Source: Psammoneis japonica | Lineage: Eukaryota | NCBI GenBank assembly: GCA_008632985.1 | Contig: QPGO01000118.1 | Coordinates: 124,001-188,000 of the forward strand | Direction: 5' to 3' | Length of the DNA stretch: 64,000 bases | Shown: one piece after another, positions 33,628 to 64,000 of the stretch | Numbering within the stretch: the first letter of the stretch is position 1 | How the letters are laid out: each line of letters starts with the position of its first letter | Notes under the pieces: model-generated | Seen by the model: only the letters and a program-made list of their open reading frames with translations | Database searches by the model: none | Told to the model about the DNA's origin: nothing | Made by a program: the position numbers and the translations under genes

Positions 33628-34517
33628 ACTTTTTCATTTTATCTTTGAGTTGTTTACTTACAAATGAAACTGTGACACCCTGGGTTCTCCTGTTGGTTGA
33701 TCGAGACAGGAAAGAATCATCTCCGTTTCTTATCCGTGTAGCTAATAGATCCTGGCTCCCTTTTGATACAAAGCCCACATTTCTTCTTGCACATTATGGA
33801 TGTCTACCAGCATTCTGTATTGTCATTGTGTAAGAGGTCAAACTCGATGAAACTATTGATTGCTCCAGCTTTGACGAACAATGAATGACTCTACCGTTTG
33901 TTACAATCAACCATAGGCCAAAAGCCGAAAGTATAACGTACCTCGCGGAATCACTCGGCAGGAGTGTCTGGAATGACGAATGGCGCGCTTGTTGTATGAG
34001 ATCTGGAGCTTGGATCCCTGGGCTCTACTTACATTTCCTCGATTTTGCAGCGACTCAATAACCGCCTCCCTTGGGTCGCTAAAATTCAACATGGCAGCAG
34101 GAGCAAGGAGCACCCTCGAGCACACGATGCAAAGTCGCGGATCCTTCATAACCCACGGTGTGTTTTCGTGCCATGTAGCAGCGAAGAAGCGTGATTTAAG
34201 TGGGATGCATGATCAACAAACATGAGTTCTAGATTCCCTGAGCACCTGTCACATTGCTTTTGCGCTTCGGCAAGTGCGTCATGATGGCTGGATGCCATCT
34301 CGCTCTCACACACAACAACTTGCTTTCTGATTCCATTTGTTCTTTTTGCGATGGAAGAGATGCTAAAACGTTCAATAAATGCAGAGCCATCACATGAAAA
34401 CATGCAGTGTCGGCAAAGAATCTGACCACCAGTGCCTTCTCACTCCTTGCCCACATGCAGCAGCTGCCGGCACCATTCACCAGACCAGCACCGTCCGCAT
34501 CATTGCACGGGTGGTCC

Positions 34518-35021
34518 TCAGGTGCCGCAGCATGAGAACTGAGAACGCTTGAAGCAGCAAGCTTTGCAGTTGCAGCCATTTGGCGCAATGGCACCGACAA
34601 AACCAGTGCACTCTTTTTTCGCCGTTGCAAGGCCAGCTCTTTTAATCTTCAAACTGTTTTGCCTTTTACGGGCATTCTCCGCATTGCAGCTCTCACAATT
34701 GATTGCACTGTTGACAGCCTCAGTGCAGCAATGGACATTGCTGCAAGATTTCAACCCAACGAATGAGTGTTGTTGAGAATGACACGAATGACCATCATTG
34801 CAACTGTGGTCATGAATCTTCATGCTGAAGAGACACCTGCATGATTCGCCGCCATTGTGTGATCTGTTGGCAACCAGCCAATTCACCTGGCCGGCACATG
34901 AACAACTGCCAGTGTCGCTGCAGTCATCTTTTTTTTCATCACTCTGCACTGTTGACAGAATCGCAAACACAAAAATCATTGCAAGAACTGTTGCAGATGG
35001 TTGATTCTGCAGCCTCCACAC
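34518..35021 (-). pseudogene. Decayed secreted Cys-repeat protein fragment (SCN...SC pattern)
   Basis: Hydrophobic leader followed by periodic SC motifs; uncertain because the mutational process itself creates Cys codons. Confidence 0.3.
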
Positions 35022-36088
35022 ATGCTGCTTGAACGAAATCGCAGCTCTTCTCTTTCACTTTGGTGTTGACAAGTCCAAAATGCGAGCCCCACCCATTGCA
35101 GCTCTTGTTGACCAAGCCACCCCCACAAAAGTCCACAACATGCCATCTCGCCATTGCAGCTGCCATTGTTCACCTTGCCATTGGCCATTCCTGAACAAGC
35201 ATCAATGTCATCACAAGAGCCTTTTCCAACTTTGGTTTGTCACATTTGCACACGAGCTCCTTGTGCTTTGCAGCTGTCATGACCAAAGAAAATTGGGCAA
35301 AACCTGCACCCATCAGCAACTCCATTGCAGGGATTCTTGGGCATCATGGCATGAGCACAAAATGCTCAGGATCCATCACAGTTGTAAAACTGTTGTGCTC
35401 AACGGCTGCACTGAGCATTCCTTTGCACACATGTTTCTCATTGCAAGACCCTGCTTGCAAAACAAGGCTCAGTGAGAGCATCATCCATCTCACCAACTGC
35501 AGCAGTGCTGGCACCAACCAACACACATGACACATGACTTTGGGAGAGCCCAAGGGAGAGCCAAAGATGACCAGCTGTGCTCCTTCTTGCTTGACCCAGC
35601 AGACTGAACCCACCAAGAGCATTCACTCTAAGTTGTGTCAAGTCAACAGATCCTTGGAGAACAGCAAAGATGCAAGAGAAACAAGACTCCACCAGTGAAA
35701 ATAGAGTCGTTCTTTCTCAAAATGACCATGCCCATCTCAAACACTTTTTTCCAGCCAGCAACCATGGATTTGACAAGCACTCGATTCAAATTTTAATCCC
35801 AAGGCCAAGTCAGCAGTGTCAGATGGAACCCAGAAAAGAGCTCCGCACAGTCATCAGTTCCCATGGCATCACTTCAACAATGCCCCACACAGGAACACCA
35901 GAAGAACAAGCAAGCCAATTGCAAGCAATCTTTGACTCAAAAGTCCATGCAGCAACACTCAAGACTTGCTTTCCTTGACAGTGTAACACCATTTCCTTGA
36001 ACAAGAAAGAGAAACATCATCACCAAAGGCACGGGGTTCCCTTCACTGTCTGAAATGCAAAACACTCACATGCACAAGATTCACATCA

Positions 36089-36632
36089 ATGGCAACTCCT
36101 CCTCCAGAACTGCCACTCAAAGAATTTCCCCACAATTGTCTGTTCAAAGTGCTTGTCATTGGCGATGCATTGAGCATCAGTTGGCAAGGCAAGCAGCAGC
36201 TGATGATCAGCTTCTGGAAAGCTCCTCTCTGTGTGAGAGAAACTGATGGCTTCTTTCTCATGTGCATTCTCAACCTTGCCATTTGTTCCTCTTCATTTTC
36301 AGCCCTCCATGTCACTCTGCAGTTCACAGATGGCATTTTTGATGAACACATTCATCCAACAATTGGTGTGGATTTCAAAGTCAAACACATCAACGTGGAT
36401 GGCAAGCATGTCAAACTTGCAATTGGGGACACACAGCCTTGCAAAAGCACTTTCGAACTCTGACATTGCCACTTTGCTGAGGCACTCATGGAGTGGCGCC
36501 AGTGTGGCTGCAATGTTTCACAAACAGGCAGCTTTAAAAATTTGGAACAATGGTTGAAAGAAGCACAACTGTGCTCTCCCAACAATGGAGAATCTGTCAT
36601 CAAACTGTTGGTGAGAAATGAAATTGATCTAG
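36089..36632 (+). pseudogene. Rab GTPase (Rab18-like) pseudogene
   Basis: LFKVLVIGD, FTDGIFDEHIHPTIGVDFKVK...KLAIGDT, SFKNLEQWLKE, VIKLLVRNEID; Tyr positions read as H/C; frameshifts; intron-like insert at about 36195-36302. Confidence 0.8.
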
Positions 36633-37000
36633 ACCACGTTCTTCTTGACACTGCTTTTCACTGGGCGTTTCATTTGCTTCTTTCTCTTGCAACCATTTGA
36701 TGATGTCATCGCAAGTGGGTGGCTCCTCTTGCCCCTTTGCATCACTCTCTTTGGCCTTGTCAAGTGAAACTTTTGCATGACTCATCTTCTCCATTTGCAC
36801 TTCTGGCAATGTGCACTGGGGTGCTTTGCCACCATTCTGTTCTTGTGGCTCTTCATTTGCTGCTTGAGCTCCCTTTTTTTGCAGCTGCTTGAAAGACATT
36901 GTGCAACACACAGCTACTAATAAGAGTTAATGTATCACGGCGACGTGTTACAGCCTTAGAAAACATGAATTCATAATGCAGCATGCATGCAGACAAAACC

Positions 37001-38471
37001 TCATTTGATGGGACATTGGGAGAATGGAAGGGAGAACCCTACCATGTCCAACTCAAGGAGGGTGTAGAACCACACCACGCTCGTCCGTATAAAGTACCTC
37101 GTGCGTACGAAGCAACGCTACGTAAAGAAGTAGAACGCCTAGTACGTATCGGTGTTCTCAAACGCGTTAACCGATCCCAATGGGCAGCTCCATCATTTAT
37201 CATACCGAAGAAAGACTTAACGGTACGCTTTATTAATGATTTGAGAGAGCTGAATAAACGGATCAAGCGATTACCTTATGCGATTCCTCATATCCAAGAT
37301 ATGCTACTTAAGCTCGAAGGCTTTATGTGGGCTACATCGCTGGATTTAAACATGGGCTATTATCATATCCGATTGGATGCTGATAGCAAGAAGCTTGCAC
37401 GCTCATCTTCCCGTGGGGCAAGTATGAGATGCAGGTATTGCCCATGGGGTTATGTAATTCGCCAGACATTTTCCAAGAACGCATGTCAGGCTTATTTGAA
37501 GATCTATCGTTCGTTCGAACGTACTTAGATGACCTTCTCGTCGTGACGAAAGGCACCTATGAAGATCACCTCAACAAACTTGAAGAAGTTTTATTGAGGG
37601 TCCAGAAAGCAGGACTAAAAGTTAAAGCAACTAAATCTCATTTCTGTCAAACCCAATTAGAATACTTGGGTTATCTGGTCAACAGAGACGGCACACGACC
37701 AATACCTAATAAAGTCGACGCCATTAAGTGAATCGCGACCCCAACCAATAAACGCGACCTAAGGTCATTTATTGGTATGGTGAACTACTACCGTGACGCG
37801 TGGATTAGACGTTCTGAAGTCTTGGCTCCGCTAACACGACTCGTAAGCGAGACTGTTAAGTGGGAGTGGACGTCCGTTGAAGACGAGGCGTTCGAAACCG
37901 TTAAACGGGTGATATCGGATGATGTTTTATTATCACATCCTGATTTTAATAAACCCTTTGAGATACATACCGATGCCTCTGAATATCAATTCGGAGCAGT
38001 GATATCCCAAGATAATAAACCTATCGCCTTTTTATAGCAGAAAGCTTAATAGTGCGCAATTAAATTATACAACAACGCAGAGAGAATTACTCGCCATTGT
38101 GGAGACGTTGAAAGAATTTCGAACGATTCTCCTGGGTCATCGTATACTTTTATTCAATGCCGAGCGCGTTATGCGCTGGCGGTTAACATGCGAAGAATAC
38201 GGTCCCGAATTACGCTATGTTAAGGGTACCCATAACCTAGTCGCTGACGCTCTTAGTCGCCTTCGGCTAGCACCCAGCTTGCCTTCCGAGGCCAATCCGG
38301 ATGTAAAAGACACTCCATCGAGTCGTCCTTTGCATGAAGCTTTTAATGCAGACGCGCAAGACGATGCATCTCTGCCTGTCAGCTTCAAGCGCATTCAAAA
38401 AGAACAACAAAAGGACAAGCACCCACTCTCACGAGCCAAGGACTCGTCCGACTGCTCCACTCGCGCGCATC
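37001..38471 (+). pseudogene. Ty3/Gypsy pol fragment (RT, RNase H, start of integrase linker), disrupted but mostly TA-intact
   Basis: SLDLNMGYYHI, LPMGLCNSP, YLDD, EYLGY, HTDASEYQ and NLVADALSR; same family as 57279-62352; frameshifts and a TGA at 37729. Confidence 0.92.
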
Positions 38472-38536
38472 GTAGCGGAGTGGTTCATCGCAACCATTGG
38501 GCAGGAGGCCAGGGGTTTGAAACCCTGAGTGGGAGT
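38472..38536 (+). promoter_or_regulatory. tRNA-like sequence with Pol III A and B boxes inside the TRIM
   Basis: A box TAGCGGAGTGG (38473); D-stem GCGG/TCGC; B box GGTTTGAAACC (38514) inside a CAGGG/CCCTG stem; anticodon region too short for a functional tRNA. Confidence 0.55.
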
Positions 38537-38600
38537 TGTCTGCAGCAACGTTGATCACTGTCGAACGCGTGAAACTCTGTGCAGTTCTGCACGTTCCTTC

Positions 38601-38952
38601 GACACGTTCCAGCCCCAGGTGCGAGCTCCGCAGTGCGAGAATTTAATCAATGGACACATTTGTCTTCAACATCAAATAAACGCCCAAGTTTGTGGTGCAA
38701 TCACGCCTCTTGCCACTCGACATTTTTGCAACTTCGCCTGCCCTGCGCGATTCTTAAGACATCATAGAATCGCGCTGTAACAAAAAATGTCAAAAGTTGT
38801 TGGACGGATCGCTCAACAAGTGCACCGTAAAATGACACAAAACATCGAAAAAATCACGTAGAAATCTACGTGCGCGACATACGACGAGACTCAAAAAACC
38901 ATCGATGCCACAGTTCAGCAGTGCGAGGTCCCACCTGGACCTGGAACGCGTC
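38601..38952. mobile_element. MITE, copy B (inverted relative to A, short internal deletion, TSD CTTC)
   Basis: Reverse complement of 21638-21971; TIRs GACACGTTCCAGCCCCAGGTG and CACCTGGACCTGGAACGCGTC; CTTC at 38597-38600 and 38953-38956; empty site visible in the TRIM paralog at about 44060-44075. Confidence 0.92.
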
Positions 38953-40359
38953 CTTCACACGCACCCACACTGTTCCGCCAAAACCGTGCAGTGTCAGCAC
39001 ACGTCAGCAAAGAGCCACATGGACGCGTGACACATGGGGAGGAGTGCAACATGCAGCCACCAGTGAGAGTCAATGTGTCACGGCGACGTGTTGCAGCCTT
39101 GGAAAATGTGAATTCACAATGCAGCATGCACGCAGACAAAAACAACCTTTTGTCTGCATGCGTGCTGCAATTGACTTGATTTTCAGAAACCTGGCCAATC
39201 TTCAATTGAGCTTCTGCTCACAGTTGCTGCTTGTCTTGCTCATGTTGTTGCTGGTGCATTCCTGGCAGCACATCAATGTGAGTGACAAGAGCACTTGCAT
39301 GTCAGCCAGTGCACCATGTTGGGGCTTGGTTTGGTGGGGTGACACCCATCTCAGCTTGCTGGCCAGGTGAAAGGTTGCTCTTGACTTTTGAACAGTGGAT
39401 GATTGGCAATGCATGCGCGGGGTTGGTTTGGTCTAATTCATTTCTGAACCCATCTGGCAACATTGTTGGATTGCACCAGAGCACTCTGATTGAAGGTTTG
39501 GCCAGGATGTTGAATGACACCAAAGCAAAGCTGGTCTTTCCACAAAGGGTCCATGCAATTCTGCCTCACCTTTGTCCATTTCTAATCCATTCAGCAAACC
39601 TCTACATTGCTGATGAACAGAGGGATTCCCATCACCAGGACAAACATGAAGTTGATCAGCGGGAACACACTGTGGAGGAAAAATGATGTCCACAACATGA
39701 TGAGAATGACTCGGAAGACACCATTGACCTTGTGGCAACGACACATGTTGAGCTTGCACAGGAGATTCATCACATCCTCTTTGTTTCTAATGAAAGAATC
39801 ATTTTCTGTGCTTTTGCATTCTTCTGGTGGGGAAGCTCCAGGCATGACATTCAAAGCTTCAGCAACAATTTTGGCAACAAATGTTGCACCAGAACTCTCT
39901 TTGTCACCCCCAGTCTGAATTTGATCTGTCAAAAGAGATGACTTGGATTTCATCCCTCACATTTTGATTGTGTCATAGATGACAAAAATCTCAAAAGGTG
40001 CTCGGCCTCAAGCATTCCCAGTTTTCCTTGTCTGCATGGCAAGGTTGAAAGTTGGAGTGATCGTGACTTGTTGGAATGCACTCAACTCTTGCATCAGGAA
40101 TGGGCCTGCACCACAGACAGTCAAATGCAAGATTGTTGAACTTCCTTTCAAAAAAGCAACTTTGGCAAGTGAGAAATCCCTTGTGAACTTTGGAGGGTCT
40201 TGCCACAAACATTCTTGTTGTCTGGATGGATTGGAAGGAAATGTTCAACCAGCCTTTGGAACTGCACCCAAGCACTCTTTCCACTTGCCAATTTCCAGTC
40301 ATGCCACACCATTGACGCAAGATGCCCACCACCAACAATGGTCTTCCCAAGCTGGCTGA

Positions 40360-42060
40360 AAGCACAAAAAGGCCGCTGTGATGAAGAATGTGCAATGACC
40401 AAAAGAACGAACACCAGCAAGAGAATTCCATTGAGAGAGCAAATCTGGTGTCCCCGCATGGAAGCAAAAATGCAGTGAAGCTCAGTGCAAATTGCTGAGA
40501 ACAGAGGGAATCCTGCAATCAAGACTTGGAATTGTTGAGATCTGCGCCATGGAACCTCTGTTGGGATTTCACGGGCAACCCCAAAATTGGCACTTGCACA
40601 GTTTTTTGCTGTGACAATTCCACCAAAGACAGTGAGGGGAAAGGTGATAAAAACAAATGGCGCAGTTGCAGCCACAATGAGCAAGCACTGGCAGATCCAT
40701 GTGCAAGCACCGCCAAATTCACCCACATGAAGACAGCAACACGTAGACCAGGGAACAAGAGTCCAGTGGCGAGGATGCACTGGACCCAATTTTGTCAGCT
40801 CATTGTTGCCCAAAGAGGCAAACCAACAATGTGTGTCCACCAACAAAGGAGGTGAGGCAGTGCAAGGCCACAACTCCAGCCAGAATTGACCCTCTTTAAG
40901 TGGCAGAGATGCGCTCAGCAAGAGCCAAACAAAGATGAAAGAATGTCATCATGTGGAGCTGGTTTCTGATTCTGACTGCAGCACAGAACAAGGTGGGATT
41001 CCAAGGGAACCTGAAAACATCACCATGGACAAGCTTCCTCCCCCTGACTCTTCTTTTTCCATGACATCATTGTCCTCAAGTTCCATGCATCAAGAGAAAA
41101 ATCATTTTTGAGAACTCCAAAAAGGACAATGGCCAAGAGTGCTGTCAAAAAAAGAACCAAGACAAAGGAGTTGATGATTGACAACCAGCGGGTCTCAAAC
41201 AAACTCAGCAAGAAGCAAGATTTGGTGCACTGGAACATTCTGTGTCTCTGAGTGAGGTTGGGCTCTTCAAACCATTTGATGGAATGTGAAAACTGAACAT
41301 GGTGTGGCTTGTCAACCTCAGTGACATCCACCAGGCAGTCCATCTGTTTGAACAGAGGGCAAGAATGTGAGCATGGGGTGCATCTCTTGTGCCCCCCAAT
41401 GACAAACATGAAGAGTTTCTTAAATCAGCCCAACACAATTTGCCTGTTGTCACACCTGATGCAAAAATGAAGGTGGGCAAAAAGAAAGGGTTTTGCTTCC
41501 TTCAATTTCTCCTGCAGTGACATCTTGATCAGCAGTGTCACCAGTGCAGCCCCACATGGGAAGATCTCCCACAAACATTTCAAAAAACCAGCTGCTTTGT
41601 GAGTTGCATCCTTCAACTTTTCCAAGTCTTTCTTTGTCAGAAGCTCCTTGCACAAAAGATGCCACTCAACACTGTTGGTGCCATGAGACACTTTGTGCAG
41701 TGAAGTCTCATGACAATTGCCAAGAATGGACTCTCCAAACCATTTTGCTCATGACATTGACTTCCCAATCACTTCTCCTTTTTGAGACCCCCACGATCTC
41801 CAGCAATTGTTGAAAGGACTGCTCAAAGCAATGCAAAGTGCAAGTGAACAAGATGGTTCCACAAATCATTGGTTCTTGTTCACAAGGTCATTTCATGCAA
41901 AGCTCTGCTGTGGCAGCACTGTGGGCAAAATCCATGCACGGCAGAAACACAACCAACTCACCTGACTTTGTTGGCGACAATGTGAACAGGGTCATGTTCT
42001 CTGCAAACCTTTTCTGCTTTGGCTCTTTTAACCTTGGCACCATCCATCAAGGCAAAGGAA
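40360..42060 (-). pseudogene. TM9SF/EMP70 (nonaspanin) pseudogene
   Basis: DPVHIVANKV (followed by a GTGAG donor), FFEMFVGDLPMWG, WLSIINSFVLVLFLT, GFPLFSAICTELHCIFASMRGHQIC (family pattern FSAIYIELYYIFAS.WGH.IY). Confidence 0.85.
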
Positions 42061-43878
42061 CAAAACAGCCGCCAAAAAAGCAAGAGTTGGTTGTGTGACA
42101 TGGTCAAAATGTTGCCATTGCACAACAAATGAGAGCACCATGTGTCTGACCATTCACATTCCTGGTTCGGGCTCACAATGGAGTCTGATGGGGCAAACTT
42201 GGTCAATGGCACATTTTTGCATGTGCGCGCTGAATGCCAGTGGTTGGATTCTTGGATTGGTTGGCGGCTGAACCAGCAAGCCAAATCCAACCCAATTTCA
42301 CAGTTTTGGGAAAGGTGGAGGGGAGCCTTTTAAACAAGAGGTTCTCATCTTTGACAAGACTGTGTGTTGTGCAGTTTGCAATGTGTGCTCTTGTCTTTGG
42401 TGCAGACGGGACATCTGGGACATGGCCACGGCAATGCTGTTGTGTAAAAAGTGTGATTCATTCCATCAATGAAATTCCCCCATTAGCTCAGTCAACTGCT
42501 GCTTGCCAACTCCTTGCCAAAAAGAAAAAGTTGCTGTCGGAATCCTCGCCCACATCACAGAAGCATCTGGCATGGTCTGTGTTCAGTCAATTTGGTCATG
42601 TGCCAGTTTTTGACAGGATTTCAGTGTGGCTGCTGTGCAAAATCCATCAACAGATTTTGACACCAACCAAAGATGTCTCCTTTTGATTGGCTTCCATTTC
42701 TGTTCTGCCATCATGAAGATGAAACTTTGTTTCATGTTGTCTCTTTTCAGAAGATGAAAAAGGAGAAAAAGGAATTGGGAACTCAAGCAGAGCCAGTGGA
42801 AGAATCCATTTTCTTGAAAAAACCAAGAAGTTGAACAAGGAGGACAAGAAGAAAAAGAAGAAATGCAAGTGCAGTTCTTTCAAGGCTCCAAAGAGCAGCA
42901 GGGCAGCAACAAGAGTGCAAAAGATCATTCCCACAAGAAGAGAAAGAAAGGAAACAGCAATGACGTCACACTGAATGATGGCTCACCTGATGCTGAATCT
43001 GAAGCACCTGTCCTTGATGGTTCAATGGTGGGTGGAATGATGGCATTGATTGACCAGACAAATGGAGCAGTTTGCTCTGCCACCAACCAGCTGGAGAGCG
43101 GCAAGTGCAAAGAAGTTGGTGTTGCACCCAAATCTGGGTCCATTGACTTGCATCTTGCTGAAGATGGTGAGTGCTCAGTTTCATTTTGTTTGCAATTGCA
43201 TGCATGGAAGACATTGGGCATTCTGCAGTTGCCCTTGATCAGTCAAATGTTGTGCCAGAGCAGTGGTTCTGCATTGTTCCTAAAATGGGATCATTGTTTT
43301 GCCAGCTGATTGGCGAGTGTGACATTTGAATCAAGTGCATCCATGGAAATGTTCTCGGCCTTTTGCACATTTTTTTGAACTGCAAATGATGACAAGAGAC
43401 CCAACTTTCCTTTTGCCACCAATGCTGATGACCACTGTGAGAGTCCTCTGCAAGCATGCCAGGATGTGTTGGCACTTCTGAAAGACTGCGTGAAAAGAAG
43501 CTCCAAATTTTGATTTGTGATCCACATTTCTGCAATGGAGCAATTGTTCAGAACCTGGGCTCTTTGGGCTTTCCCAGTGTGTGCAATTGCAAAGAAGATT
43601 GCTGCCAAATCTGGGGAAGTTCCAGGTGTCCTGCCCATGACATGCTGGCGACCAACCCACATTGCAGCGGCAACCACATGTTGAACGATTGGTTGACCAC
43701 GTGATGTTGAAATCATTCAGCAGCGAACCATGGATGTCATTGCTGCTGCACAAGGGTTGTTGCATCTCCAAGACAAAAGGAACTCAACCCTTTTACATTG
43801 TTCCTCTCACAGGAGGCATGTTTGCACACCACCACGATCTTTTCAAGAGAGCAAGAAAAGCAACATCCACAAGAAATT

Positions 43879-44265
43879 TGCAACACACAGCCACTGGTGA
43901 GAGTCAATGCATCACGGCGACGTGTTGCAGCCTTCAAATGTCACAAAGGGCGTGGCAAAAACAACCTTTTGTCTGCGTGCATGCTGCGCTGTGAATTCAC
44001 AGCGGAGTGGTTCATCGCAACCATCAGGCAGGAGTGCGCAAAACTCTGTGCAGTTCTGTGTGTTCCTTTGCACACCCACACTGTTCCGCCAAAACCGCAC
44101 AGTGTCAGTGCACGTCAGCAAAGAGCCGTGTGGACGCGTGACACATGGGGAGGAGTGCAATGCACAGCCACTGACAAGAGTTGATGCATCACAGCAACGT
44201 GTCACAGCCTTTAAATGTCACAAAGGGCGTGACAAAAACAACCTTTTGTCTGCATGCACACTGCA
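43879..44265 (+). mobile_element. TRIM-like element, copy 2 (387 bp, 110-bp terminal direct repeats, TSD AATT)
   Basis: Repeats at 43879-43988 and 44156-44265; PPT GGGGAGGAG at 44147-44155; AATT at 43875-43878 and 44266-44269. Confidence 0.85.
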
Positions 44266-56600: not shown

Positions 56601-57278
56601 GGGTGAGCAAACTGGAGGTGCATCAAAGTCCTCATCGGGTGCAACATCACGTGCCAGTCCCAGAGGATTGTGTTGATCAAAGGAAAAAACAGGCTCTTCC
56701 ATCAGATGGGAGATTGAGGGGGGCCCACAACTGCCATCGAGACGGTTGGCTCCAATGAACTCGGGGACATCCACAGGACTGTCCTCTCCAGTGGCAGACA
56801 CACCATCATCTGCAAACAAAACAAATCAATGGGCGTTTTGGGCAGCTGCGCTGGCGGCATCAATGTTGGCGGCTGAATGCAATCAACCAGAGCATCTGAT
56901 GGAGGGTGGGCGTGGTCCATTTCTGGCAGAGGGAGGGCCAGCTGGAGAAGAATTGTCAGATGGTGTGGGATGAGATGGAGCTGGATTCCAAAGGACTTCG
57001 GGGAGGGGAGGGGGGGGTTCATCGTCGGTGAAACCAAACCCAGCAGGATCATCTTGGTTGTCCAGTGATTCGTCGTCTGGAGGGGGGAGTGCATTTGTGG
57101 CATCAGAAGATGCGGCATGCCGGTGAAGGGACATTTCCTCCTTTTCGCGGCAGGGTGAGTGCTTCTGTAGATGAAGGGCAATGTTGGAAAAGGGGGCACG
57201 GCAATGGGGGCATTTGGGTTTGTTGGTGTTGGACCCAAGGGAGCCAACTGAGGTGGAATCCAGAGCATGAGAGGAAAG

Positions 57279-57710
57279 TGCCCCATGTGTGCACCAGGCG
57301 CTGAAAAAGAAGATGTGTCACGACTTTGTCGTTGTGAAAAATATGAGCTAGTTTAGAGTAGAGAAAATGGGATCGTGCGAATAGGGAATCTTGCCAAATC
57401 CCTATTCGTTCGCATTTGGATCGTATTAAATCGATCGTGCGTTCGCATTATGGATCGTGCGAATCAAGCCATCACGCGCCATGCACGAGTGATATCATCG
57501 TGTGGAATCACGCTACCATCGTGGGCCAGACGACGGGCTAGTGTGCTTCACACGGATGCTCTCTTAGCATCCTTCTGGAATTGCCTAAGACCTAGAGCCA
57601 CGCCCTCCTGTGGTCGTGCTTCCCAGGTACGTGTTAACAATACTACGTTGCCACGTACAAGAGGCTTATGCACGGTCTCGCCGTGTTGTCCAGTAGCGAG
57701 GCATACTGCA
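57279..57710 (-). repeat. Gypsy 3' LTR (mostly TA-retaining)
   Basis: Colinear without indels with 61921-62352. Confidence 0.95.
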
Positions 57711-57879
57711 CACTCCCCCATGATGAGGGCCGTTAAGTGACAGAATGTCTTACTGGTGATAGGGTACAATCTGCCGTAGATTATACGTATCTATCAGCGC
57801 TCCGTTCTGGATACGCAACGTGCCGTTGTCATATACACGGACAACTCTGGCGGGTCCTGCATAGCTGTCAGAACCGTAT

Positions 57880-60842
57880 TTATTTAGAGGATTGTTCCTG
57901 TTTGATAAGTACTAATTGCCCTACGGTATATTGATACTCCTTGCGTTTCTGATTTTCACGCTTGTTGTTTAATTGGATAAGCTTCTGCTTTCTGGTTTTT
58001 ATGTACTTCCACTTAGTACGATAGGCAATAGATAAAACCGCATCGCGTCCGAAGACCAATTGCATGGGACTTGCACGCGTGGTCGTGTGTACCGTAGCTC
58101 TAATAGCGAAGGCTACTGCGGAGAGGATGCCACTCCATGGGTCATCTTCGTCCAGTTCCATATCCTGTACTGAAAAGGAACGTACCATGTTACCAAGTGT
58201 CTGGTGTACACGTTCCACTATGGCATTTGCCTGTGGATTCCGTTTACTTATGGGTTTCTTCAAAATCCCATAGTCATTTTTAATCATCATCTGGCTAAAT
58301 TCTGCCATAAATTCTGTCCCACGGTCATAAACCACCTGGGTTGGCCACGGATATCTGCATAGCCACGTTTGTTCCACGACGTTTGCTACGACGTCTGCGC
58401 GTTTCGTAGACACTTTTTTAATCTCGAACCACCCGGTTGCTGGGTCAATCATTGTGACTGCCCATAATTGCAAGGTGTCCTTTCCGCCCTATCATATCTA
58501 TGCATAGAGTTTCCCATGGAATTATCTCTGCGACCTTTTCTGGTAGCTTCCCATAACGCTGCGTTCGGCGTTTTGTCTTCTGGCATCGATCGCACTTAAC
58601 GCACGTAGAATGCACCGTAGACCTCATACTAGGCCAATAGAAGTGCTAGGCAATAGATATTTCCGTACGTGTCTCACCTGGATGACACAGTGTCTCGTTG
58701 TACCATTCAGTTAGCGGAACCTGCAATGACTGTGGTACTACGATTTTGTCCTTATGACAGATTAACTGTCGTGATGACCCTCCCCCAAGATACGCGCGAA
58801 TGGAGTAGTCGGACGAGTCCTTAGCTCTTGAGAGTAGGCGCTTGTCCTTTTGTTGTGCTTTTTGAATGCGCTTGAAGCTAACAGGCAGAGATGGCTCATC
58901 TTGAGCGTCTGCATTAAAGGCTTCATGCAAAGGACGACTCGATGGAGTGTTTTTACATCCGGATTGGCTTCGGAAGGCAAGCTGGGTGCCAGTCGAAGGC
59001 GACTGAGAGCGTCAGCGACCAGGTTGTGGGTGCCCTTGACACAGCGTAATTCGGGACCGCACTCTTCGCATGTGACCGCCAGCGCATAACGCGCTCGGCA
59101 TTGAATGCTTTGTACGTAAGATTTTTATGATCAGTGTGTGTGACCACATGATGACCAAGGAGAGTCGTTCGAAATTCTTTCAACGTCTCCACAATGGCGA
59201 GTGATTCTCTCTCCGTTGTTGCACAATTTAATTGCGCACTGTCAAGCTTTCTGCTGTAAAAGGCAATGGGTTTGTTATTTTGGGACACAGCTGCTCCCAA
59301 TTGACATTTAGAGGCATCGTCATGTGTCTCAAAGGGTTTGTTAAAATCAGGATGTGATGACAAAACATCATCCGATGTCACCCGTTTGACGGTTTCGAAC
59401 GCCTCGTCTTCAACGGACGTCCACTTTGCGAGTCGTGTTGGCGGAGCCAAGACTTCAGAACATCTAATCCACGTGTCACGGCAGCAGCTCACCATGCCAA
59501 CAAATGAACGCAGGTCGCGTTTGTTGGTTGGGGTCGCGATTCGCTCAATGGCATCGACTTTGTCAGGCATTGGTCGTGTTCCGTCTCTGTTGACCAGATG
59601 ACCCAAGCACTCTAATTGGGTTTGACAGAAGTGAGATTTAGTTGCGTTGGCTTTTAGCCCTGCTTTCTGGACCCTCAATGAGACTTCTTCAAGTTTGTTG
59701 AGGTGATCTTCACAGGTGCCTTTCGTCACGATGAGAAGGTCATCTAAGTGCGTTCGAACGAACAACAGATCTTCAAATGAGCCTGACATGCGTTCTTGGA
59801 AAATGTCTGGCGAACCACACAATCCCATGGGCAATGCCTGCATCTCACACTTGCCCCACAGGAAGATGAGCGTGCAGAGCTTCTTGCTGTCAGCATCCAA
59901 TCGGACATGACAATGGCCCATGTTTAAATCCAGCGATGTAGCCCACACAAAGCCTTCGAGCTTAAGTGGCACATCTTGGACATGAGGAATCGGATGAGGC
60001 AATCGCTTGATCCATTTATTCAGCTCTCTGAAATCATCAATGAAACGCACCGTTAAATCTTTCTTCGGTGTGACAAATGATGGAGCTGCCCATTGGGATC
60101 GGTTGACGCGTTTGAGAACACCGATGTGCGCTGGGCGCTCTACTTCCTTGCGCAGCGTAGCTTCGCATGCACGAGGTGCTTTATGCGGACGAGCGTGGTG
60201 TGGTTCTACACCCTCCTTGAGTTGGATGTGGCAGGGTTCTCCCTTCCATTCTCCCAATGTCCCATCAAACAAGGACTCATGGCGTTTCAACAGTGCCAAA
60301 AGGTTGTTTTGTTGAACTGTAGAAAGTCCCATTGCCCCTCGCGTCATGTCCTCGAGGCAGGCCGGTGCGCACTTAGCGTCCAAAATGCGCGAAATCCGGT
60401 CGGTTTCCGAAGATGAGGCTTCTGGATCTTGAAGATAGAAGGAGGTTTCCACCGCAGCATCTACGTGCCTCATTGGCACTTCTCCATTGACTGATGGCCA
60501 CTCTGTCATCTGTTTAGAGAAGACAATGTCAATGCCTCATGTCTCCAGAATGTCACGTCCAACAATCATGTCGCACTTGCCCAACTTTCCGTTGTGCACG
60601 TGGACGGCATGCTTGGGTTCTGCAGTTTCGGATGATTCTGGTGACCGAAATTTAACGGCACAGTCGTCAGACGCACTGAATGAGCCTGCCACCGTAGTCC
60701 AGTTTGTCTCAGCCGTTGAATGGCTTCGCAGATGTTTGCAGTGTCGACTGTCGAGCAGAGTGCTGCCAGCGCCACTGTCTGGCAGTGCCTCAATGGTTTG
60801 AGTCTTGCCCTTGCCATGTTTGGTGTTCATGGCCACAAACAA
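57880..60842 (-). pseudogene. Gypsy pol: protease (ALPDSGA), RT (HLDD), RNase H, integrase (HPG..R, C..C, YDRGTEF, NPQANAIVER)
   Basis: ORFs 60537-60842, 58953-60509, 58646-58930, 58445-58627 and 57880-58473; frameshifted. Confidence 0.93.
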
Positions 60843-60973
60843 GATTGGAGCAAGATGAGTCTTTTTAACTCGTTTGGGGATTGGCCTGCAACACGTGTAC
60901 GATGGTAATTCAGTTGCTCATTTGTACATTCATCTGATGCATTAAAACCACCTGCATCATGTCGGCCCCCTTC

Positions 60974-61813
60974 TCAGGCGTCCGAATCTTCGGAACCACT
61001 TAAGTTGAGGTCGCGGAAGTGATTGAGCTCCTCCTTGTGGGCCTTGCGCTTTTTCTGAGCGTTGGCAAAGCACTCCTCGACCTTCGATCCGATGAGAGCA
61101 TTGGTGTCTTCCTCATTCCGAGGTTTTGCATCAGGCTTGCCGCCTCCGTCATTGGAATGTCCAGTCTTGACACGTTTCACGTGGTGCTTGAGCTGACGGC
61201 AATCTTCCGCATCATGTCCACAGTCAGTCCCGTGTGGCACACACGACTTCTGGGTGTTCCGCTGGGTCGTGATCAACGACTCAGGATTGTCCATTCTACG
61301 TCCCCGCTTGCGTGGAACCTTGGCATGTTGGTCCTGGTTACCTTCGGCAAGCTCGACCTGCTCGATGCGCTCGCAGAACTGCACAAATTCGGTGATGGCA
61401 TGCGCCAACGGGTCAAAATTCTGTAGCGTCATGAACTTCTGCCATGCGTTCGGCACACCGCACTCGAACATGTCGCACAGTTCGTCATTGGGCAATGGTG
61501 CCGGTGTTTCTCCATCCTCCATCACGGGTGGAAACTGAGAGATGTGGCCGTTAATTTCAACAGCCCTCGCGACACAGTCACGAGCAGAAACCTCTGCGGG
61601 CTTGCGCATGAAGCGCCGCAGATGACGCTTCTGCAGCAGCACCGCCCCATTTGGGAAGACACTTTCCTTTAGCTTCGCGATGCATGCTGCGCACGTAGCG
61701 TTGGTTTGGGATGCCTGCTTGTCAGCGGCATTGTCAAATGACGTCAGAGCATCGCCCTGTGGCAAGTCACGCTTCTTTCTTCTCCGGCCGTGCGAACGGA
61801 ATCGGCGGCTCAA
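60974..61813 (-). pseudogene. Gypsy gag, with a C-terminal CxxHxxxxxHxxxxC knuckle
   Basis: VFP..AVLLQKRHLRR.MRKP, GVPNAWQ, FCERIE and CVPHGTDCGHDAEDC; lies between the 5' LTR and the protease. Confidence 0.85.
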
Positions 61814-61920
61814 CCCGCTTCTTCATGGTCGTTTTGAGATTTGTCGGTCCTGCCAACATTTCGTAGTTTCGTTTCTGTAGATTTCGTCACCTCGCACAAC
61901 ATGCGGGAGCAATGTTGCTG

Positions 61921-62352
61921 TGCCCTGTGTGTGTGCCAGGCGCTGAAAAAGAAGATGTGTTGCGACTTTGTCGTTGTGAAAAACATGAGCTAGTTTAGAG
62001 CAGAGAAAATGGGATCGTGCGAATGGGGAATCTTGCCAAATCCCCATTCGTTTGCACTTGGATCACATTAAATTGATCGTGCGCTTGCATTGTGGATCGT
62101 GCGAATCAAGCCATCACGCGCCATGCACGAGTGATGTCATCGTGTGGAATCACGCTACCATCGTGGGCCAGACGACGGGCTGGTGTGCTTCACACGGATG
62201 CTCTCTTAGCATCCTTCTGGAATTGCCTGAGACCTAGAGCCACGCCCTCCTGTGGTCGTGCTTCCCAGGTGCGTGTCAACAATGCTGCTTTGCCATGCAC
62301 AAGAGGCTTGTGCACGGTCTCGCCGTGTTGTCCAGCAGCGAGGCACACTGCA
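61921..62352 (-). repeat. Gypsy 5' LTR (TA-edited)
   Basis: Colinear with 57279-57710; differs mainly by loss of TA. Confidence 0.95.
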
Positions 62353-64000
62353 AAAGAGATGTTCCGCTGGATGGGGAAGATGATTGGGTTGTGCGGCGCA
62401 ACTGTGTCAATGGGGGAGGGAGACCAGATGCAGCAGTGCAGTGCCGAGACAGGTGATGCTGCACATTGTTTTCGGAGTCAAATCCACGTTGTCCACAATG
62501 AGGACAACTGAAAGACTTGGTGGGAATGGTGGAACGGAGGCAGCCAGTTGCAATGTGCCTGCTGAGACCACGTTTGGAAAAGAAACCAGTTCGTTCACAC
62601 CAAGGACAAACAAGACCATCAGACAACATGGCCAATGCACAGAGACAAAGGAGTTGAGAAGAGAATCAAAAGGAAACAGTGTGTGCAGCAACAATCACTT
62701 GGGGATTTGGTGAGGGTGGAAAGATGTGAAGAGAAACAAGGTGCGATTGATGGGGGAAGGCGTCATGGCTGGACAGGACAGAAGGATGGAATGGGCAGGG
62801 AGAGAAAGTTTAGAAGACTGCCTTGACGAATGCATGCGACAATTTTGATCCAGAAAGTTGATTGACACACAATCCAGAAATCAACATGGAACTGAACAAA
62901 CACATGAGGCTTGTTGGATGGGGGGGGGGGGGGGGGGGGGGGGGTTGAATGGTTGAATTGGGGAGTGCAGATGTTTGTTGTTGAACATTTCACAAATGCT
63001 GACTTGACAAATCAGCATGATCATGGATTGGGGGGAGAGCATGTCGGGTTTAATTTCAAGCAATCTTGACGGCTGGTGCGACACCTGGATTGTTGGTGTC
63101 CCAGATGTGACTTCATCACATGCACTTTCTGTGTGGCATCCCGGATGGTTTCAGAAAAGCTGTGCTTGTGAACCTCATCACATGATGAGGGGGAGAGCTC
63201 CTCCATGCCCCTGTCATGCTTGAGGTGTTTGATCCCTTGACAATGAGTTTGCCATCCTTTGCAACTTCCAAACAAAATTCATGATTGCAGCTGTCAACAT
63301 TCTCAGCATGGGCAATTGCCTCTTTGAAAAGAGTGCAAACAGGGTGAGTTTTGACAGTTGAAACCATGTGCACACAATTGAACAATGGAGTCCAAGAATG
63401 AGAGTGAAGCTTGAGTTGCTGCTCAATCAGCACAACAAACTCAAAAACAAACATGACAACATCCCAACTCACCATCTTGCTGCCTGTGCTGATGATGATG
63501 ATCAAATTGAGTGCATGTAAAACTTTTTTGCAAGAAGTCCCAAGTGTTGAATTCCCCAGCTCTCACTTGGCAGTCTTCAAGCCATTTTTGCACTTTGCAC
63601 CAGCAACTGGTTCCCAAGGAGGCATTGTGGTGAATCTTGTTGTTCTTCCTTCTTCCTCTTCTTCTTTCCAGCTTGTTGCTTGCTTGGACAGCCCACTGGA
63701 AATTGCAAAATTCAGACTTGGGCATGCTGGTGCCCAAACAAGAAACAACAGCAACACACGCATAAATTTTTGCATGACCCCAGTGTGCATGATGCATGCA
63801 TGACATCTGCTGCATGTTCAGCACCAGACTCCACAAGGGAAAAAACAGACAGATGCAAGGGGGGAGAGATCCGTGATGACCAGAAATGTGTGGTGGGAAT
63901 GAAAGTGCAGTGACAGCCAAGTTGCCCACCCTCCTGCATTGAGAAGCCTCTGAGTGGCCATCATGTGCTGTTGCATGCTGCAAAGTTGTGCACACATTCT

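Follow-up and report, generated by a model that had tools for sequence, protein, structure and literature searches.

In the alga Bigelowiella natans, integrated DNA of NCLDVs and virophages has been reported to undergo hypermutation specific to TpA (Mettrop et al., bioRxiv 10.64898/2026.01.13.699255). According to that preprint, mutation-accumulation lines acquired 231 de novo mutations across two regions, of which 230 were A>G or T>C, all of them on TpA, at a rate about 1,000 times that of the genome and with activity in 11 of 15 lines; reverse-transcriptase and DDE domains were enriched among TpA-poor genes. Our literature search for TpA-to-TpG/CpA hypermutation in diatoms found no report, and TpA-erasing hypermutation has so far been reported only this once, in 2026 and in an unrelated alga. 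A preliminary description of the locus analyzed here knew of no account of such a process, which holds for diatoms and not for the signature itself.

Several other systems offer partial parallels. RIP in Neurospora and other fungi likewise leaves irreversible transitions at one dinucleotide in sharply bounded blocks of silenced or invasive DNA, but its C-to-T changes fall on CpA, so that TpA and stops are gained and the DNA becomes AT-rich, and it is duplication dependent, premeiotic and marked by strand-coherent runs. Deamination of 5-methylcytosine at CpG occurs in methylated transposons. APOBEC3 and AID also restrict mobile DNA through hypermutation in a dinucleotide context, acting on C in single-stranded cDNA in a strand-asymmetric, clustered manner. 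TadA/ADAT2-ADAT3 and ADAR, natively RNA enzymes, turn A into I, read as G, at natural sites with U 5' of the edited A; the tRNA deaminase target is U33-A34, and ADARs favor a 3' G.

Here, we analyze a 64,000-nucleotide stretch (the window) of the pennate diatom Psammoneis japonica and argue that discrete silent blocks of this chromosome probably undergo a localized, DNA-level process that changes T:A to C:G only at TpA, yielding TpG or CpA. These blocks hold defunct transposons, host-type genes in decay and young LTR elements that inserted there. The process is presumably enzymatic and of the same kind as in the B. natans mutation-accumulation lines, in a stramenopile host here as against the chlorarachniophyte (rhizarian) host of the preprint.

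Depletion of TpA and CpG in discrete domains

Observed/expected ratios (o/e) of TpA, CpG and TG+CA were computed in 1-kb windows, and borders were taken from 200-bp bins. Read support comes from X1, a DNA sequencing run whose library type is not on record and which may be the assembly's own source data rather than an independent platform. The window contains the following features.

1–800: old TpA/CpG-depleted domain, continuing past the window start; first four 200-bp bins free of TA; TpA o/e 0.12, CpG 0.29 (1–1000)
5900–10800: old depleted domain between two genes; TpA o/e 0.01–0.19, CpG 0.19–0.36, TG+CA 1.69–1.86; none of 17 ORFs of at least 110 aa in 5663–10894 has a Pfam domain
21200–22600: small depleted domain, interrupted at 21634–21970 by an undepleted copy of a very abundant repeat; TA per 200 bp 2, 1 / 11, 18 / 2, 0, 1
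34300–36892: old depleted domain, from TpA o/e windows, 200-bp bins and X1 contig 32229–36930
35987–36460, plus strand: Ras-family pseudogene piece (Pfam Ras, 7.2e-09)
36893–38340, plus strand: fragment F, unmutated left part, with a 100-bp repeat (R) followed from 37004 by a Gypsy RT-RNase H piece; TpA o/e 0.94, CpG 1.22; RVT_1 and RT_RNaseH matches; motifs MGYYHI, YLDD, EYLGY and VNYYRD
38380–39170, plus strand: fragment F, TpA-mutated right part, with the RNase H end, an abundant repeat (38619–38957) and a second R copy (39044–39141); TA 1, 5, 4 and CG 14, 12, 17 per 200 bp, CpG still normal
39171–57278: main old depleted domain, with relics of host-type genes and a DNA transposon; TpA o/e 0.01–0.16
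40308–42101, minus strand: EMP70/TM9SF pseudogene, nearly full-length, with frameshifts and stops (Pfam EMP70, 4.7e-15 and 1.9e-12)
47569–48189, minus strand: weak PhyH/2OG-Fe(II) oxygenase-like relic (Pfam PhyH, 1.5e-4, barely above cut-off)
53749–55143, minus strand: longest open frame of the old domain (464 aa), perhaps left by a Plavaka/KDZ-type transposase, a lead only
57279–62352, minus strand: Gypsy LTR retrotransposon E; LTR pair 92.8% identical over 433 bp; Pfam rve, RVT_1, RT_RNaseH; 4-bp TSD AAAG
57278–57710, minus strand: element E, 3' LTR (from the LTR pair)
57880–58488, minus strand: element E, integrase (Pfam rve)
58953–60536, minus strand: element E, PR-RT-RNase H (Pfam RVT_1, RT_RNaseH)
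60974–61822, minus strand: element E, gag-like ORF
61920–62352, minus strand: element E, 5' LTR (from the LTR pair)
57279–58950, minus strand: element E, unmutated tract (3' LTR and integrase); TpA o/e 0.79–0.90, CpG 0.90–0.99; TA dense to 58835
58990–62352, minus strand: element E, TpA-mutated tract (RNase H, RT, gag, 5' LTR), CpG nearly intact; TpA o/e 0.22–0.30, CpG 0.84–1.02
62279–62665, minus strand: C2H2 zinc-finger relic (zf-C2H2_4, 5.8e-07)
62353–64000: old depleted domain, continuing past the window end; TpA o/e 0.04–0.09, CpG 0.11–0.58

Summed over the old domains (1–800, 5900–10800, 34300–36800, 39200–57200 and 62400–64000; 27,804 bp in total), TpA occurs 98 times against 1,910 expected, compared with 1,019 against 1,800 in the 25.9 kb of genic DNA. 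This loss of about 95% is near saturation and leaves the adjoining genes untouched: TpA o/e is 0.01–0.19 at 6001–11000, 35001–37000, 39001–57000 and 62001–64000, and 0.31–0.86 in the intervening gene windows. Borders lie at about 800, 5800–6000, 10800, 34300, 36800, 57200–57400 and 62400, each within one 200-bp bin, in agreement with the sharply bounded TpA loss of the preliminary description. Discrete regions beside DNA with ordinary TpA, long-term TpA depletion and CpA+TpG enrichment are likewise features of B. natans, where the preprint gives an o/e of 0.45 for the NCLDV region as against the near-total depletion seen here (0.01–0.1). That description had treated 34230–64000 as one domain and 21200–22720 as another. 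Depletion holds in both and uniformity in neither: the former includes tracts with normal TpA (o/e 0.79–0.94; 36.9–38.3 kb and 57.28–58.9 kb) and tracts with partial depletion (0.22–0.30) and normal CpG (38.4–39.0 kb and 58.9–62.35 kb), and the latter consists of two pieces, 21200–21600 and 22000–22600, that flank an undepleted 340-bp repeat.

The old domains have lost most of their CpG as well (485 observed, 1,573 expected), the excess of TpG and CpA matches the TpA and CpG losses, and the two products are nearly equal (TG 2,928, CA 3,073). Because the TpA and CpG losses cancel, GC content is unaltered (47.6%, against 47.3% in genes), which, with the opposite direction of change, led us to reject the C-to-T chemistry of fungal RIP. 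5-Methylcytosine deamination at CpG, which operates here too, explains the CpG loss and some of the TpG/CpA excess; this coupling of TpA loss to CpG decay is unlike B. natans as described in the preprint. As a sole cause such decay was rejected, since it cannot remove TpA and since TpA change outpaces CpG-to-TpG decay about 9–12-fold per site within the young tracts.

The process removes TAA and TAG, which are rarer in the old domains than in genes (TAA 2.0 against 8.9 per kb, TAG 0.9 against 7.8); where RIP creates TpA and stops, it destroys TpA and adds no stops. TA to TG/CA makes no in-frame stops because TGA arises only from TAA, and the heavily mutated pol frame of the 59-kb copy is still open over 527 codons, as expected from the earlier proposal that elements are disabled by means other than creating stops.

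Direction of change

The direction of change is TA to TG/CA. Three copy pairs pooled give 109 such changes (57 to TG, 52 to CA) against 6 in reverse, the same nearly pure A>G/T>C at TpA, giving TpG or CpA by strand, as the preprint reports for B. natans. The two LTRs of element E differ at 31 positions in 433 bp: at 17 of the 23 TA sites of the left LTR, the right LTR has TG (9) or CA (8), with no reverse case; 5 further differences are CG to TG/CA with the same polarity; three sites with CA in one LTR and TG in the other account for 6 more and fit TA as the ancestral state, struck in both LTRs; and the remaining 3 are of other kinds. Sorted by type, 22 of the 31 are A>G or T>C, 5 are CpG transitions, 3 are the C>T halves of CA-versus-TG sites and 1 is a transversion. 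Between the two pol copies, TA is altered in the 59-kb copy at 74 of the 98 TA sites of the 37-kb copy (37 TG, 37 CA), with 6 reverse changes, and A>G/T>C outnumber G>A/C>T by 94 to 26. The repeat at 38619–38957 has lost 18 TA relative to its homologue at 21634–21970, with none in reverse (9 and 27 TA remain, respectively). CpG is altered at 5 of 32 sites in the mutated LTR and at 12 of 96 in the mutated pol copy.

Conserved tyrosines point the same way. All eight protein motifs on which the preliminary description had based its polarity are present at 37.0–38.3 kb and 59.0–60.3 kb. At 14 Tyr positions of a metagenomic outgroup (L001), the 37-kb copy has 11 Tyr and the 59-kb copy 1 Tyr, 6 Cys and 5 His; over 18 consensus-Tyr columns of 118 database homologues, the median match is 94% Tyr, compared with 2 of 16 for the 59-kb copy. 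Residue changes in the EMP70 pseudogene (tblastn) include Y>C (7), Y>H (4), I>V (9) and R>C (4), and two public, unrelated protein records, P0192 and P0220, show the same Tyr-to-Cys/His pattern. The copy pairs, the outgroup, the database homologues and the pseudogene together uphold a separate, localized A:T-to-G:C process that is confined to TpA, opposite to RIP and distinct from CpG deamination.

Strand balance, site context and rate

Each site is struck independently, on either strand with equal chance. TG and CA number 37 and 37, 9 and 8, and 11 and 7 in the three pairs, runs tests for clustering gave z = +2.1, −0.2 and −0.8, and the window pairs showed no strand-coherent runs of changes. 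Such hits alternate between strands, unlike those of RIP, and they are post-integration, symmetric and A:T-directed, unlike those of APOBEC3/AID.

Sites of the form T-A-Y (RTAY in duplex) mutate earliest and YTAR latest. In the young pairs, TA is retained at 1 of 40 RTAY, 17 of 70 mixed and 18 of 38 YTAR sites (p = 2e-5), and RTAY makes up 2 of 98 surviving TA in old domains against 309 of 1,018 in genic DNA. Counted per strand, change occurred in 73 of 150 opportunities with a +1 pyrimidine and in 36 of 146 with a +1 purine (p = 2e-5), with G the least favored 3' neighbor (0.23). The main text of the B. natans preprint makes no mention of such a rule ("flank" and "trinucleotide" have 0 occurrences there). 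BjADAT2 from amphioxus, described as the only experimentally supported eukaryotic DNA-editing ADAT2, acts in the contexts GAA (adenine) and TCG (cytosine) (PMC10354150); with T-A-Y found here we rejected ADAT2-type DNA editing, and the deaminase named in the preprint is unsupported by context because ADAT2, as reported, prefers GAA and not TA.

TpA change runs about 420–1,270 times above other substitutions, a ratio from one LTR pair with 1–3 background substitutions. That pair is also what suggests ongoing activity, and the rate ratios are indirect: the preprint measured about three orders above background in B. natans, whereas the diatom value comes from a sequence ratio.

A repair or replication defect in silent, late-replicating or methylated chromatin, for example G:C-biased mismatch correction, strongest at the weakly stacked TpA, would need no dedicated enzyme. 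It would suit the spatial overlap of TpA changes with CpG decay and the independent single-site events on both strands. We nevertheless consider it improbable, given the extreme specificity (only 2 of the 31 LTR differences are A:T-to-G:C changes outside TpA), the four-base context rule, a rate hundreds of times background and, in the preprint, the restriction of B. natans activity to 11 of 15 lines. For the enzymatic process that we favor, the likeliest chemistry would be adenine deamination to hypoxanthine in DNA, or oxidation or modification of the paired thymine; the earlier statement that the process acts on adenines goes too far, as the sequence does not separate adenine from its paired thymine as target. 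Its likely effect would be a permanent erosion of silenced DNA that adds no stops, through missense change (Tyr to His/Cys, Ile to Val/Thr, Leu to Ser/Pro) and the removal of signals that contain TA.

Changes made in chromosomal DNA

The mutations arose in integrated chromosomal DNA and did not pass through RNA or cDNA. Post-integration action on DNA follows from the difference between the two LTRs of element E, which has the TSD AAAG, and DNA-level action from the presence of both Y>C and Y>H in the host-type EMP70 pseudogene and from the similar TG and CA counts of the old domains. Differences outside the TA and CG classes number 3 per 433 bp in the LTR pair versus 46 per 1,456 bp in the pol copies (p = 0.003).

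A-to-I editing of transposon RNA by an ADAR-like enzyme, fixed by reverse transcription and re-integration, would share the 5' U preference of ADAR noted in the Discussion of the B. natans preprint (bioRxiv 10.64898/2026.01.13.699255), and the best-resolved targets here are retrotransposons. This reading is already at odds with both the LTRs and the pseudogene and has a negligible probability: the LTRs of a single element differ from each other, and a host pseudogene that is no retroelement and entire intergenic relics are affected. The strands are also struck equally and without runs. Moreover, G is the least favored 3' neighbor here, although it is the one that ADARs favor.

The depleted letters are present in the reads of X1 and are not an invention of the assembly. 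Contig 32229–36930 has depth 64 and 5 differences to the window, and contigs 39135–43893 (1 difference) and 44237–45613 (none) have depth 68–69; depleted single-copy stretches thus show depths of 64–69 (62–67 in genes) and 0–5 differences per 1.4–4.8 kb. All 5 of the differences between X1 and the assembly within the depleted domain set TA or CG against TG/CA. X1 contains 0.46 of the words of 54001–64000, close to the fraction of this interval outside element E, 0.49; element E itself may therefore not occur letter for letter in X1.

Element E and fragment F switch between the unmutated and mutated states at the same homologous place, reciprocally (alignment A1, columns 201–300), which a plain in situ tract model does not predict and which counts against our preferred explanation. 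The switch could reflect an assembly join and so lend something to the idea that sequencing, basecalling or polishing on modified DNA produced the signature over a chromosome that truly reads TA, as could the facts that the assembly platform is not on record and that X1 is possibly its source data. We regard such an artefact as highly improbable. X1 contigs of up to 4.8 kb, with k-mer depth 64–69, match the depleted sequence closely, unlike noisy reads, and the changes behave as inherited mutations that differ between LTRs and copies, scale with CpG decay and obey site context; in addition, P0192 and P0220 carry the same substitutions, and the preprint states that the B. natans signature was called from Illumina data.

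Targets and targeting

The struck targets comprise Gypsy elements, a possible Plavaka-type relic and host-type EMP70, Ras, PhyH and C2H2 relics, whereas the preprint describes giant-virus inserts. The preliminary description had called the process repeat-directed, and a repeat-induced system like fungal RIP with another chemistry, recognizing duplicates by homology, perhaps in a sexual phase, with every TpA at risk, would account for the abundance of transposon relics in the depleted domains and for mutation of the abundant repeat 38619–38957 and of the Gypsy family. The host-type pseudogenes could have begun as old copies of genes still intact elsewhere, and diatoms are reported to have RID-related DNMT4 genes (PMC9998398).

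We find this version unlikely, and the data do not support direction by repeats. The RT-RNase H pol fragment at 36.9–38.3 kb belongs to a family whose summed X1 depth (copies of at least 85% likeness) is about 100–400 times single copy, yet it is unmutated. Conversely, the mutated domains include host-type pseudogenes whose read depth indicates a single copy: no second copy of 39135–43893 at 85% likeness or above was seen in X1, where depth is flat at 69. The mutated tract of element E (58990–62352) does not match the extent of its homology to the other window copy (58780–60269), strand-coherent runs are lacking, and the main B. natans target is single-copy according to the preprint. CpG decay and the mixed content of the domains instead suggest that the process is aimed by silent, cytosine-methylated chromatin rather than by sequence homology. 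The process may serve in genome defense.

Among the relics, the EMP70 pseudogene is closest to diatom EMP70 (63–65% identity, with tblastn spanning residues 2–565). The 464-aa frame at 53749–55143 has no match in a Pfam search and shares 154 features, below the 170 typical for true family members; with an Atlas feature score of 0.94 to clusters in which 14–71% of members carry PF18759, it is possibly a Plavaka/KDZ-type transposase relic.

TpA and CpG are depleted together in sharply bordered domains

The window has an overall G+C of 47.7% (whole 64 kb). In 1-kb windows, the observed/expected (o/e) ratio of TpA falls to 0.01-0.19 at 6001-11000, 35001-37000, 39001-57000 and 62001-64000 and to 0.12 at 1-1000, whereas the intervening gene windows show 0.31-0.86. 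The edges are abrupt, with TpA dropping from ~5-15 to 0-2 per 200-bp bin within at most one bin. Summed over the 27.8 kb of old domains (blocks depleted in both TpA and CpG, at 1-800, 5900-10800, 34300-36800, 39200-57200 and 62400-64000), 98 TpA are observed against 1,910 expected from base composition, along with 485 CpG (1,573 expected), 2,928 TpG (1,679 expected) and 3,073 CpA (1,789 expected). The corresponding counts in genic DNA (25.9 kb) are 1,019 TpA against 1,800 expected and 1,395 CpG against 1,445 expected. G+C is nearly the same in old domains (47.6%) and genic DNA (47.3%), because the gain at TpA is balanced by the loss at CpG.

Features of the depleted domains and of the Gypsy copies, with the evidence for each in brackets
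~800, 5800-6000, 10800, 34300, 36800, 57200-57400 and 62400: domain borders (200-bp TpA counts)
57279-62352, minus strand: element E, a Gypsy LTR retrotransposon, the 59-kb copy (LTRs, flanks, Pfam)
57278-57710 and 61920-62352, minus strand: the LTRs of E (92.8% identity over 433 bp)
37004-38480, plus strand: fragment F, an RT-RNase H piece of the same Gypsy family as E, the 37-kb copy (copy comparison)
36893-36998 and 39044-39141: two copies of a 100-bp repeat, R, bracketing F
35987-36460: Ras (Pfam)
40148-41424: EMP70, in two pieces (Pfam)
47569-48189: PhyH / 2OG oxygenase (Pfam)
62279-62665: C2H2 finger (Pfam)

The preliminary description had drawn one depleted interval from 34230 to 64000. 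Depletion is indeed present there but is not uniform, since the interval includes unmutated and partly mutated tracts: TpA and CpG are both normal at 36.9-38.3 kb and 57.28-58.9 kb, while at 38.4-39.0 kb and 58.9-62.35 kb most TpA is gone (o/e 0.22-0.30) and CpG is retained (0.84-1.02).

TAA and TAG occur only 2.0 and 0.9 times per kb in old domains, and long spurious open frames therefore arise; 110 frames of at least 110 aa lie in or overlap the depleted domains and islands (~37 kb), where gene predictors may annotate them as genes.

Old domains hold mixed content

Element E is flanked on both sides by a 4-bp target-site duplication, AAAG, and encodes an integrase, an RT-RNase H and a gag-like frame. 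When 112 frames (18 + 94) of at least 110 aa in or overlapping the depleted domains and islands were scanned against Pfam, 13 gave a match; five of these are transposon domains, all within the young Gypsy copies E and F. The EMP70 relic (40308-42101) is near full length: interrupted by frameshifts and stops, it aligns to residues 2-565 out of 632 in a Nitzschia protein, and its nearest relatives are diatom EMP70 proteins (63-65% identity). The depleted domains are thus silent blocks with mixed content, not transposons alone, because few transposon genes are recognisable and host-type relics are present. As a lead, the longest frame (53749-55143) may resemble Plavaka/KDZ transposases, as suggested by a language-model feature score of 0.94 with 154 shared features, the sole basis for this likeness.

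TA is the ancestral state

We report that four independent lines (LTRs, copy pairs, an outgroup and database homologues) place TA as ancestral to TG and CA, the polarity initially proposed for this locus. Comparison of the two LTRs of E gives 31 differences in 433 positions. At 17 sites, TA in the left LTR faces TG (9) or CA (8) in the right one, with no case of the reverse, and five further sites pair CG with TG/CA in the same direction as the TpA changes. Six differences form three adjacent CA-versus-TG sites, best read as single ancestral TA steps that would have been struck on opposite strands in each LTR, and the last three comprise two T>C changes outside TpA and one transversion.

The same asymmetry is seen between copies. 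At the 98 TpA sites of the 37-kb copy, its 59-kb counterpart reads TG 37 times, CA 37 times, TA 21 times and another dinucleotide 3 times; six changes run in reverse, five of them within the terminal segment past a reciprocal switch described below. Likewise, of the 27 TpA in the 21634-21970 repeat, 18 are gone from its homologue at 38619-38957, with no loss in the opposite direction.

Protein comparisons agree. All eight conserved motifs listed in the preliminary description were found in place. Relative to L001, a metagenomic relative used as outgroup (59-67% identity in pol), the 37-kb copy keeps Tyr at 11 of 14 Tyr positions, whereas in the 59-kb copy a single Tyr survives, alongside 6 Cys and 5 His. 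We also defined 18 columns with Tyr in at least 70% of 120 pol-frame homologues: the median homologue retains 94% of them, and the 59-kb copy 2 of 16, with 5 His and 7 Cys. Outside the retrotransposons, the EMP70 relic differs from a diatom orthologue by seven Y>C, four Y>H and nine I>V changes. These polarity lines support the core of the original reading, a TpA-specific A:T-to-G:C process opposite in direction to RIP.

Changes arise in the chromosome, on both strands and in a T-A-Y context

The two LTRs of one element are identical upon integration. Outside TA/CG, the LTRs of E differ at 3/433 positions and E and F at 46/1,456, a contrast with Fisher p = 0.003. Because its LTRs started identical, E has a target-site duplication and other differences are few, the right LTR lost 17-20 of its 23-26 TpA while in the chromosome. 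The TpA loss extends to host-type pseudogenes and to relics that could not be classified. An RNA or cDNA route cannot be the general cause, since the LTRs diverged in place and host-type pseudogenes are affected.

Both strands are hit equally, with TG/CA outcomes of 37/37, 9/8 and 11/7 in the three young pairs (37-kb versus 59-kb copy, LTRs of E, and the 21634-21970 versus 38619-38957 repeat), and the 2,928 TG and 3,073 CA of old domains show the same symmetry. Along the sequence, TG and CA alternate at chance level or slightly above (runs tests z = +2.1, -0.2 and -0.8): hits are independent single-site events without strand-coherent tracts. Double hits turning TA into CG are rare (1/98 between the 37-kb and 59-kb copies).

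For context, each event was oriented to the strand with A to G and counted relative to the opportunities available. The immediate 3' neighbour of the A matters most: fractions are higher with C (0.52) or T (0.46) there than with A (0.26) or G (0.23), and pyrimidines give 73/150 against 36/146 for purines (p = 2e-5); the position before the T, two bases 5' of the A, has a weaker effect (0.28-0.45). Read as duplex words, the young pairs kept 1/40 RTAY, 17/70 mixed and 18/38 YTAR sites (chi-square p = 2e-5). As the end point of this process, the 98 surviving TpA of old domains comprise 2 RTAY, 39 mixed and 57 YTAR, against 309, 521 and 188 among 1,018 genic TpA (p = 1e-20).

TpA is lost far faster than CpG, with 1.47 against 0.17 hits per site in the mutated LTR of E (ratio 8.6) and 1.54 against 0.13 in the pol region (ratio 11.5), and ~420-1,270 times faster than other sites, an estimate with very wide error as it rests on 1-3 background substitutions in a 433-bp LTR pair. 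Because TpA loss outpaces CpG decay, the window holds three states: young and untouched, TpA-depleted with CpG intact, and old with both depleted.

A reciprocal switch between E and F

Element E is unmutated from 57279 to ~58950 and mutated from ~58990 to 62352, where ~60 TA persist, while F is unmutated from 36893 to ~38344 and mutated from ~38380. The two switches (58880-58990 and 38270-38380) are reciprocal and ~40-110 bp apart in homologous coordinates; in window coordinates, E and F are each mutated on their right side only. The arrangement resembles what a crossover between copies in inverted orientation, or a join made in assembly, would give; it may stem from a crossover or inversion, from a join in the assembly or between haplotypes, or from a true barrier that the process meets. 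Inversion or crossover as the simplest reading is rejected on the strength of the matching 4-bp target-site duplication of E and the disparity in non-TA/CG differences (3/433 between its LTRs, 46/1,456 between E and F). The duplication and the near identity of the LTRs outside TA/CG speak for E being a single element mutated along part of its length.

The depletion is present in sequencing reads

We placed a public DNA run, X1, on 28001-48000 at 85% likeness, permissive enough to admit TA-bearing reads. The X1 contig over genes (28001-32063) has a depth of 62 and 3 differences from the assembly; contigs over depleted single-copy DNA have depths of 64 (32229-36930, 5 differences), 69 (39135-43893, 1 difference) and 68 (44237-45613, no differences). 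The five differences inside the depleted domain are one TA-versus-CA, three CG-versus-TG/CA and one CA-versus-CG. Since these contigs reproduce depleted stretches at genic depth, the pattern therefore exists in accurate reads, of a run that may be the assembly's own data and whose library type is unrecorded. Polishing by reads of other copies is ruled out by the same pol segment being unmutated in F and mutated in E. X1 contains 0.46 of the sampled words of 54001-64000, close to the 0.49 of that stretch lying outside E, and E may be absent from it letter for letter or differ there, for example by being less or more mutated.

The ~340-bp repeat at 38619-38957, also found at 21634-21970, reaches a summed X1 depth of up to ~87,000 against ~65 for single-copy DNA. 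A tiny run, X3, covers only this 38.6-38.95 kb repeat, where its contigs, 47-154 letters long, fall on both strands, and could be a small-RNA library. A further run, X2, is probably RNA because its contigs skip introns: at 28989-29208 and 30014-30104 they lack stretches of 104, 84 and 89 bases bounded by GT..AG or CT..AC, which belong to a metacaspase gene (28.4-29.3 kb) and to a gene on the minus strand at about 30 kb. It gives spliced contigs over genes at 28-33.7 kb and nearly none over 34-48 kb, and no RNA run is listed as matching 54001-64000; we draw no inference on expression from such gaps.

Candidate chemistry and targeting

Taken together, these patterns show a process acting on duplex DNA: its sites obey a four-base rule, both strands are treated alike, each site is hit independently, specificity is extreme, and the sharp domain borders track neither gene nor repeat identity. 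The preliminary description called it repeat-directed, which is not established. Depletion overlaps in space with CpG decay, which usually marks cytosine methylation, and we infer an enzyme aimed by the silent chromatin state of the domain. The proposed action on adenines is likewise not established, an A and its paired T being inseparable as substrates by sequence, and the term defence also goes beyond what is established.

The simplest chemistry would be adenine deamination to hypoxanthine; given that the process is real, we hold an adenine deaminase to be a plausible agent, at slightly less than an even chance. The T-A-Y context fits the UAC found in substrates of bacterial TadA. ADAR-like enzymes are disfavoured because a 3' G is the least favoured neighbour here, and so is the amphioxus ADAT2 precedent because its DNA-editing contexts, GAA and TCG, differ from T-A-Y (PMC10354150). 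As for N6-methyladenine as a target, the literature searched yielded nothing on TpA or diatoms. The main alternative would be oxidised thymine, as 5-hydroxymethyluracil or 5-formyluracil, either of which mispairs with G. 5-Hydroxymethyluracil occurs at TpA in dinoflagellates; the literature searched yielded no paper on this. On the same premise we consider thymine modification unlikely, with the absence of any dedicated enzyme improbable to the same degree and another enzyme a little less probable still.

A similar process in Bigelowiella natans and signs of breadth

To our knowledge, mutational genome defence through A:T-to-G:C DNA editing was unknown in eukaryotes until one rhizarian alga was described in a single preprint of 2026. 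That study followed 15 mutation-accumulation lines of Bigelowiella natans, in which an integrated NCLDV and a virophage region together received 231 of the 302 nuclear mutations; 230 of them were A>G or T>C changes, each on TpA and yielding TpG or CpA (Mettrop et al., bioRxiv 10.64898/2026.01.13.699255). The preprint gives a rate of ~6e-7 in target regions against 3.5e-10 elsewhere, with activity in only 11 of the 15 lines, and describes 124 genomic clusters of TpA-poor, CpA+TpG-rich windows, with TpA-poor genes enriched in reverse-transcriptase and DDE domains; its authors propose an ADAT2-like DNA adenine deaminase, and its main text leaves flanking bases unmentioned (bioRxiv 10.64898/2026.01.13.699255). 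The TpA-specific A:T-to-G:C signature in this diatom matches that of B. natans. The preliminary description knew of no earlier account in diatoms, which holds, as the literature searched yielded no diatom report of TpA loss with CpA and TpG gain; the signature as such has been described. The window extends the B. natans case to a host that is second and distant and to transposons and pseudogenes as targets, and it adds saturation, the T-A-Y rule and the GC-neutral coupling of TpA loss with CpG decay.

Among the 120 database pol homologues, two from environmental assemblies carry the same signature: P0192, on a 15.6-kb contig, and P0220. At 17 consensus-Tyr columns, P0192 has 4 Tyr, 10 Cys and 2 His and P0220 has 2 Tyr, 8 Cys and 4 His; changes of the TA to TG/CA kinds make up 39% and 47%, respectively, of the residues by which they deviate at strongly conserved columns, compared with 9% for the remaining 118 homologues. 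The process probably exists in other organisms or strains. Motifs of the two resemble those of the mutated copy (MGCCH, CIDD/HVDD, ECLG), and Ile-to-Val/Thr changes occur too. A metagenome scan with the unmutated integrase gave five loci, none of them TpA-depleted (TA o/e 0.54-0.93), in a search biased to intact copies; it is uninformative on breadth because its peptide patterns came from the intact protein, making decayed copies unlikely to be found.

The recurrence of this signature in a pennate diatom, where it is saturated and affects transposons and pseudogenes, suggests that it is not a one-species curiosity, and the process may be a widespread feature of SAR algae. Tentatively, and with the balance tipping mildly against it, diatoms and chlorarachniophytes could share an old chromatin-directed base-editing defence, in which a putative enzyme reads duplex T-A-Y in silenced DNA and converts T:A to C:G. 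If so, transposons, integrated viruses and trapped genes would be eroded at ~1000 times background, with no GC footprint because CpG decay offsets it, which may explain why genome surveys overlooked it, and P0192 and P0220 would be a first sign of its wide spread in the sea. The constraints from the diatom (T-A-Y rule, strand symmetry, single-site independence, speed relative to CpG) can be used to search for the enzyme, which would be a natural duplex-DNA A:T-to-G:C editor. In practice, TpA-free, GC-neutral blocks escape GC- or RIP-index scans, and TpA loss distorts transposon dating and mutation-spectrum estimates in diatom genomes.

Neighbouring genes

The galactokinase at 13421-14719 has at most 64% identity to any database protein, and its best named matches are pennate diatoms (Synedra, Fragilaria, Nitzschia, Cylindrotheca and Seminavis), in agreement with the EMP70 relic. 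On the minus strand, 16988-18997 holds a 669-aa Pro/Ser/Thr/Gly-rich frame with internal direct repeats at 17600-18300 (~85-190 bp spacing, 65-87% identity), which resembles a repeat protein of mucin-like or frustule-associated type. A pair of metacaspase (Peptidase_C14) paralogues, at 19433-20254 and 28384-29241, is separated by 8 kb and lies near a ferritin gene at 31091-31792.
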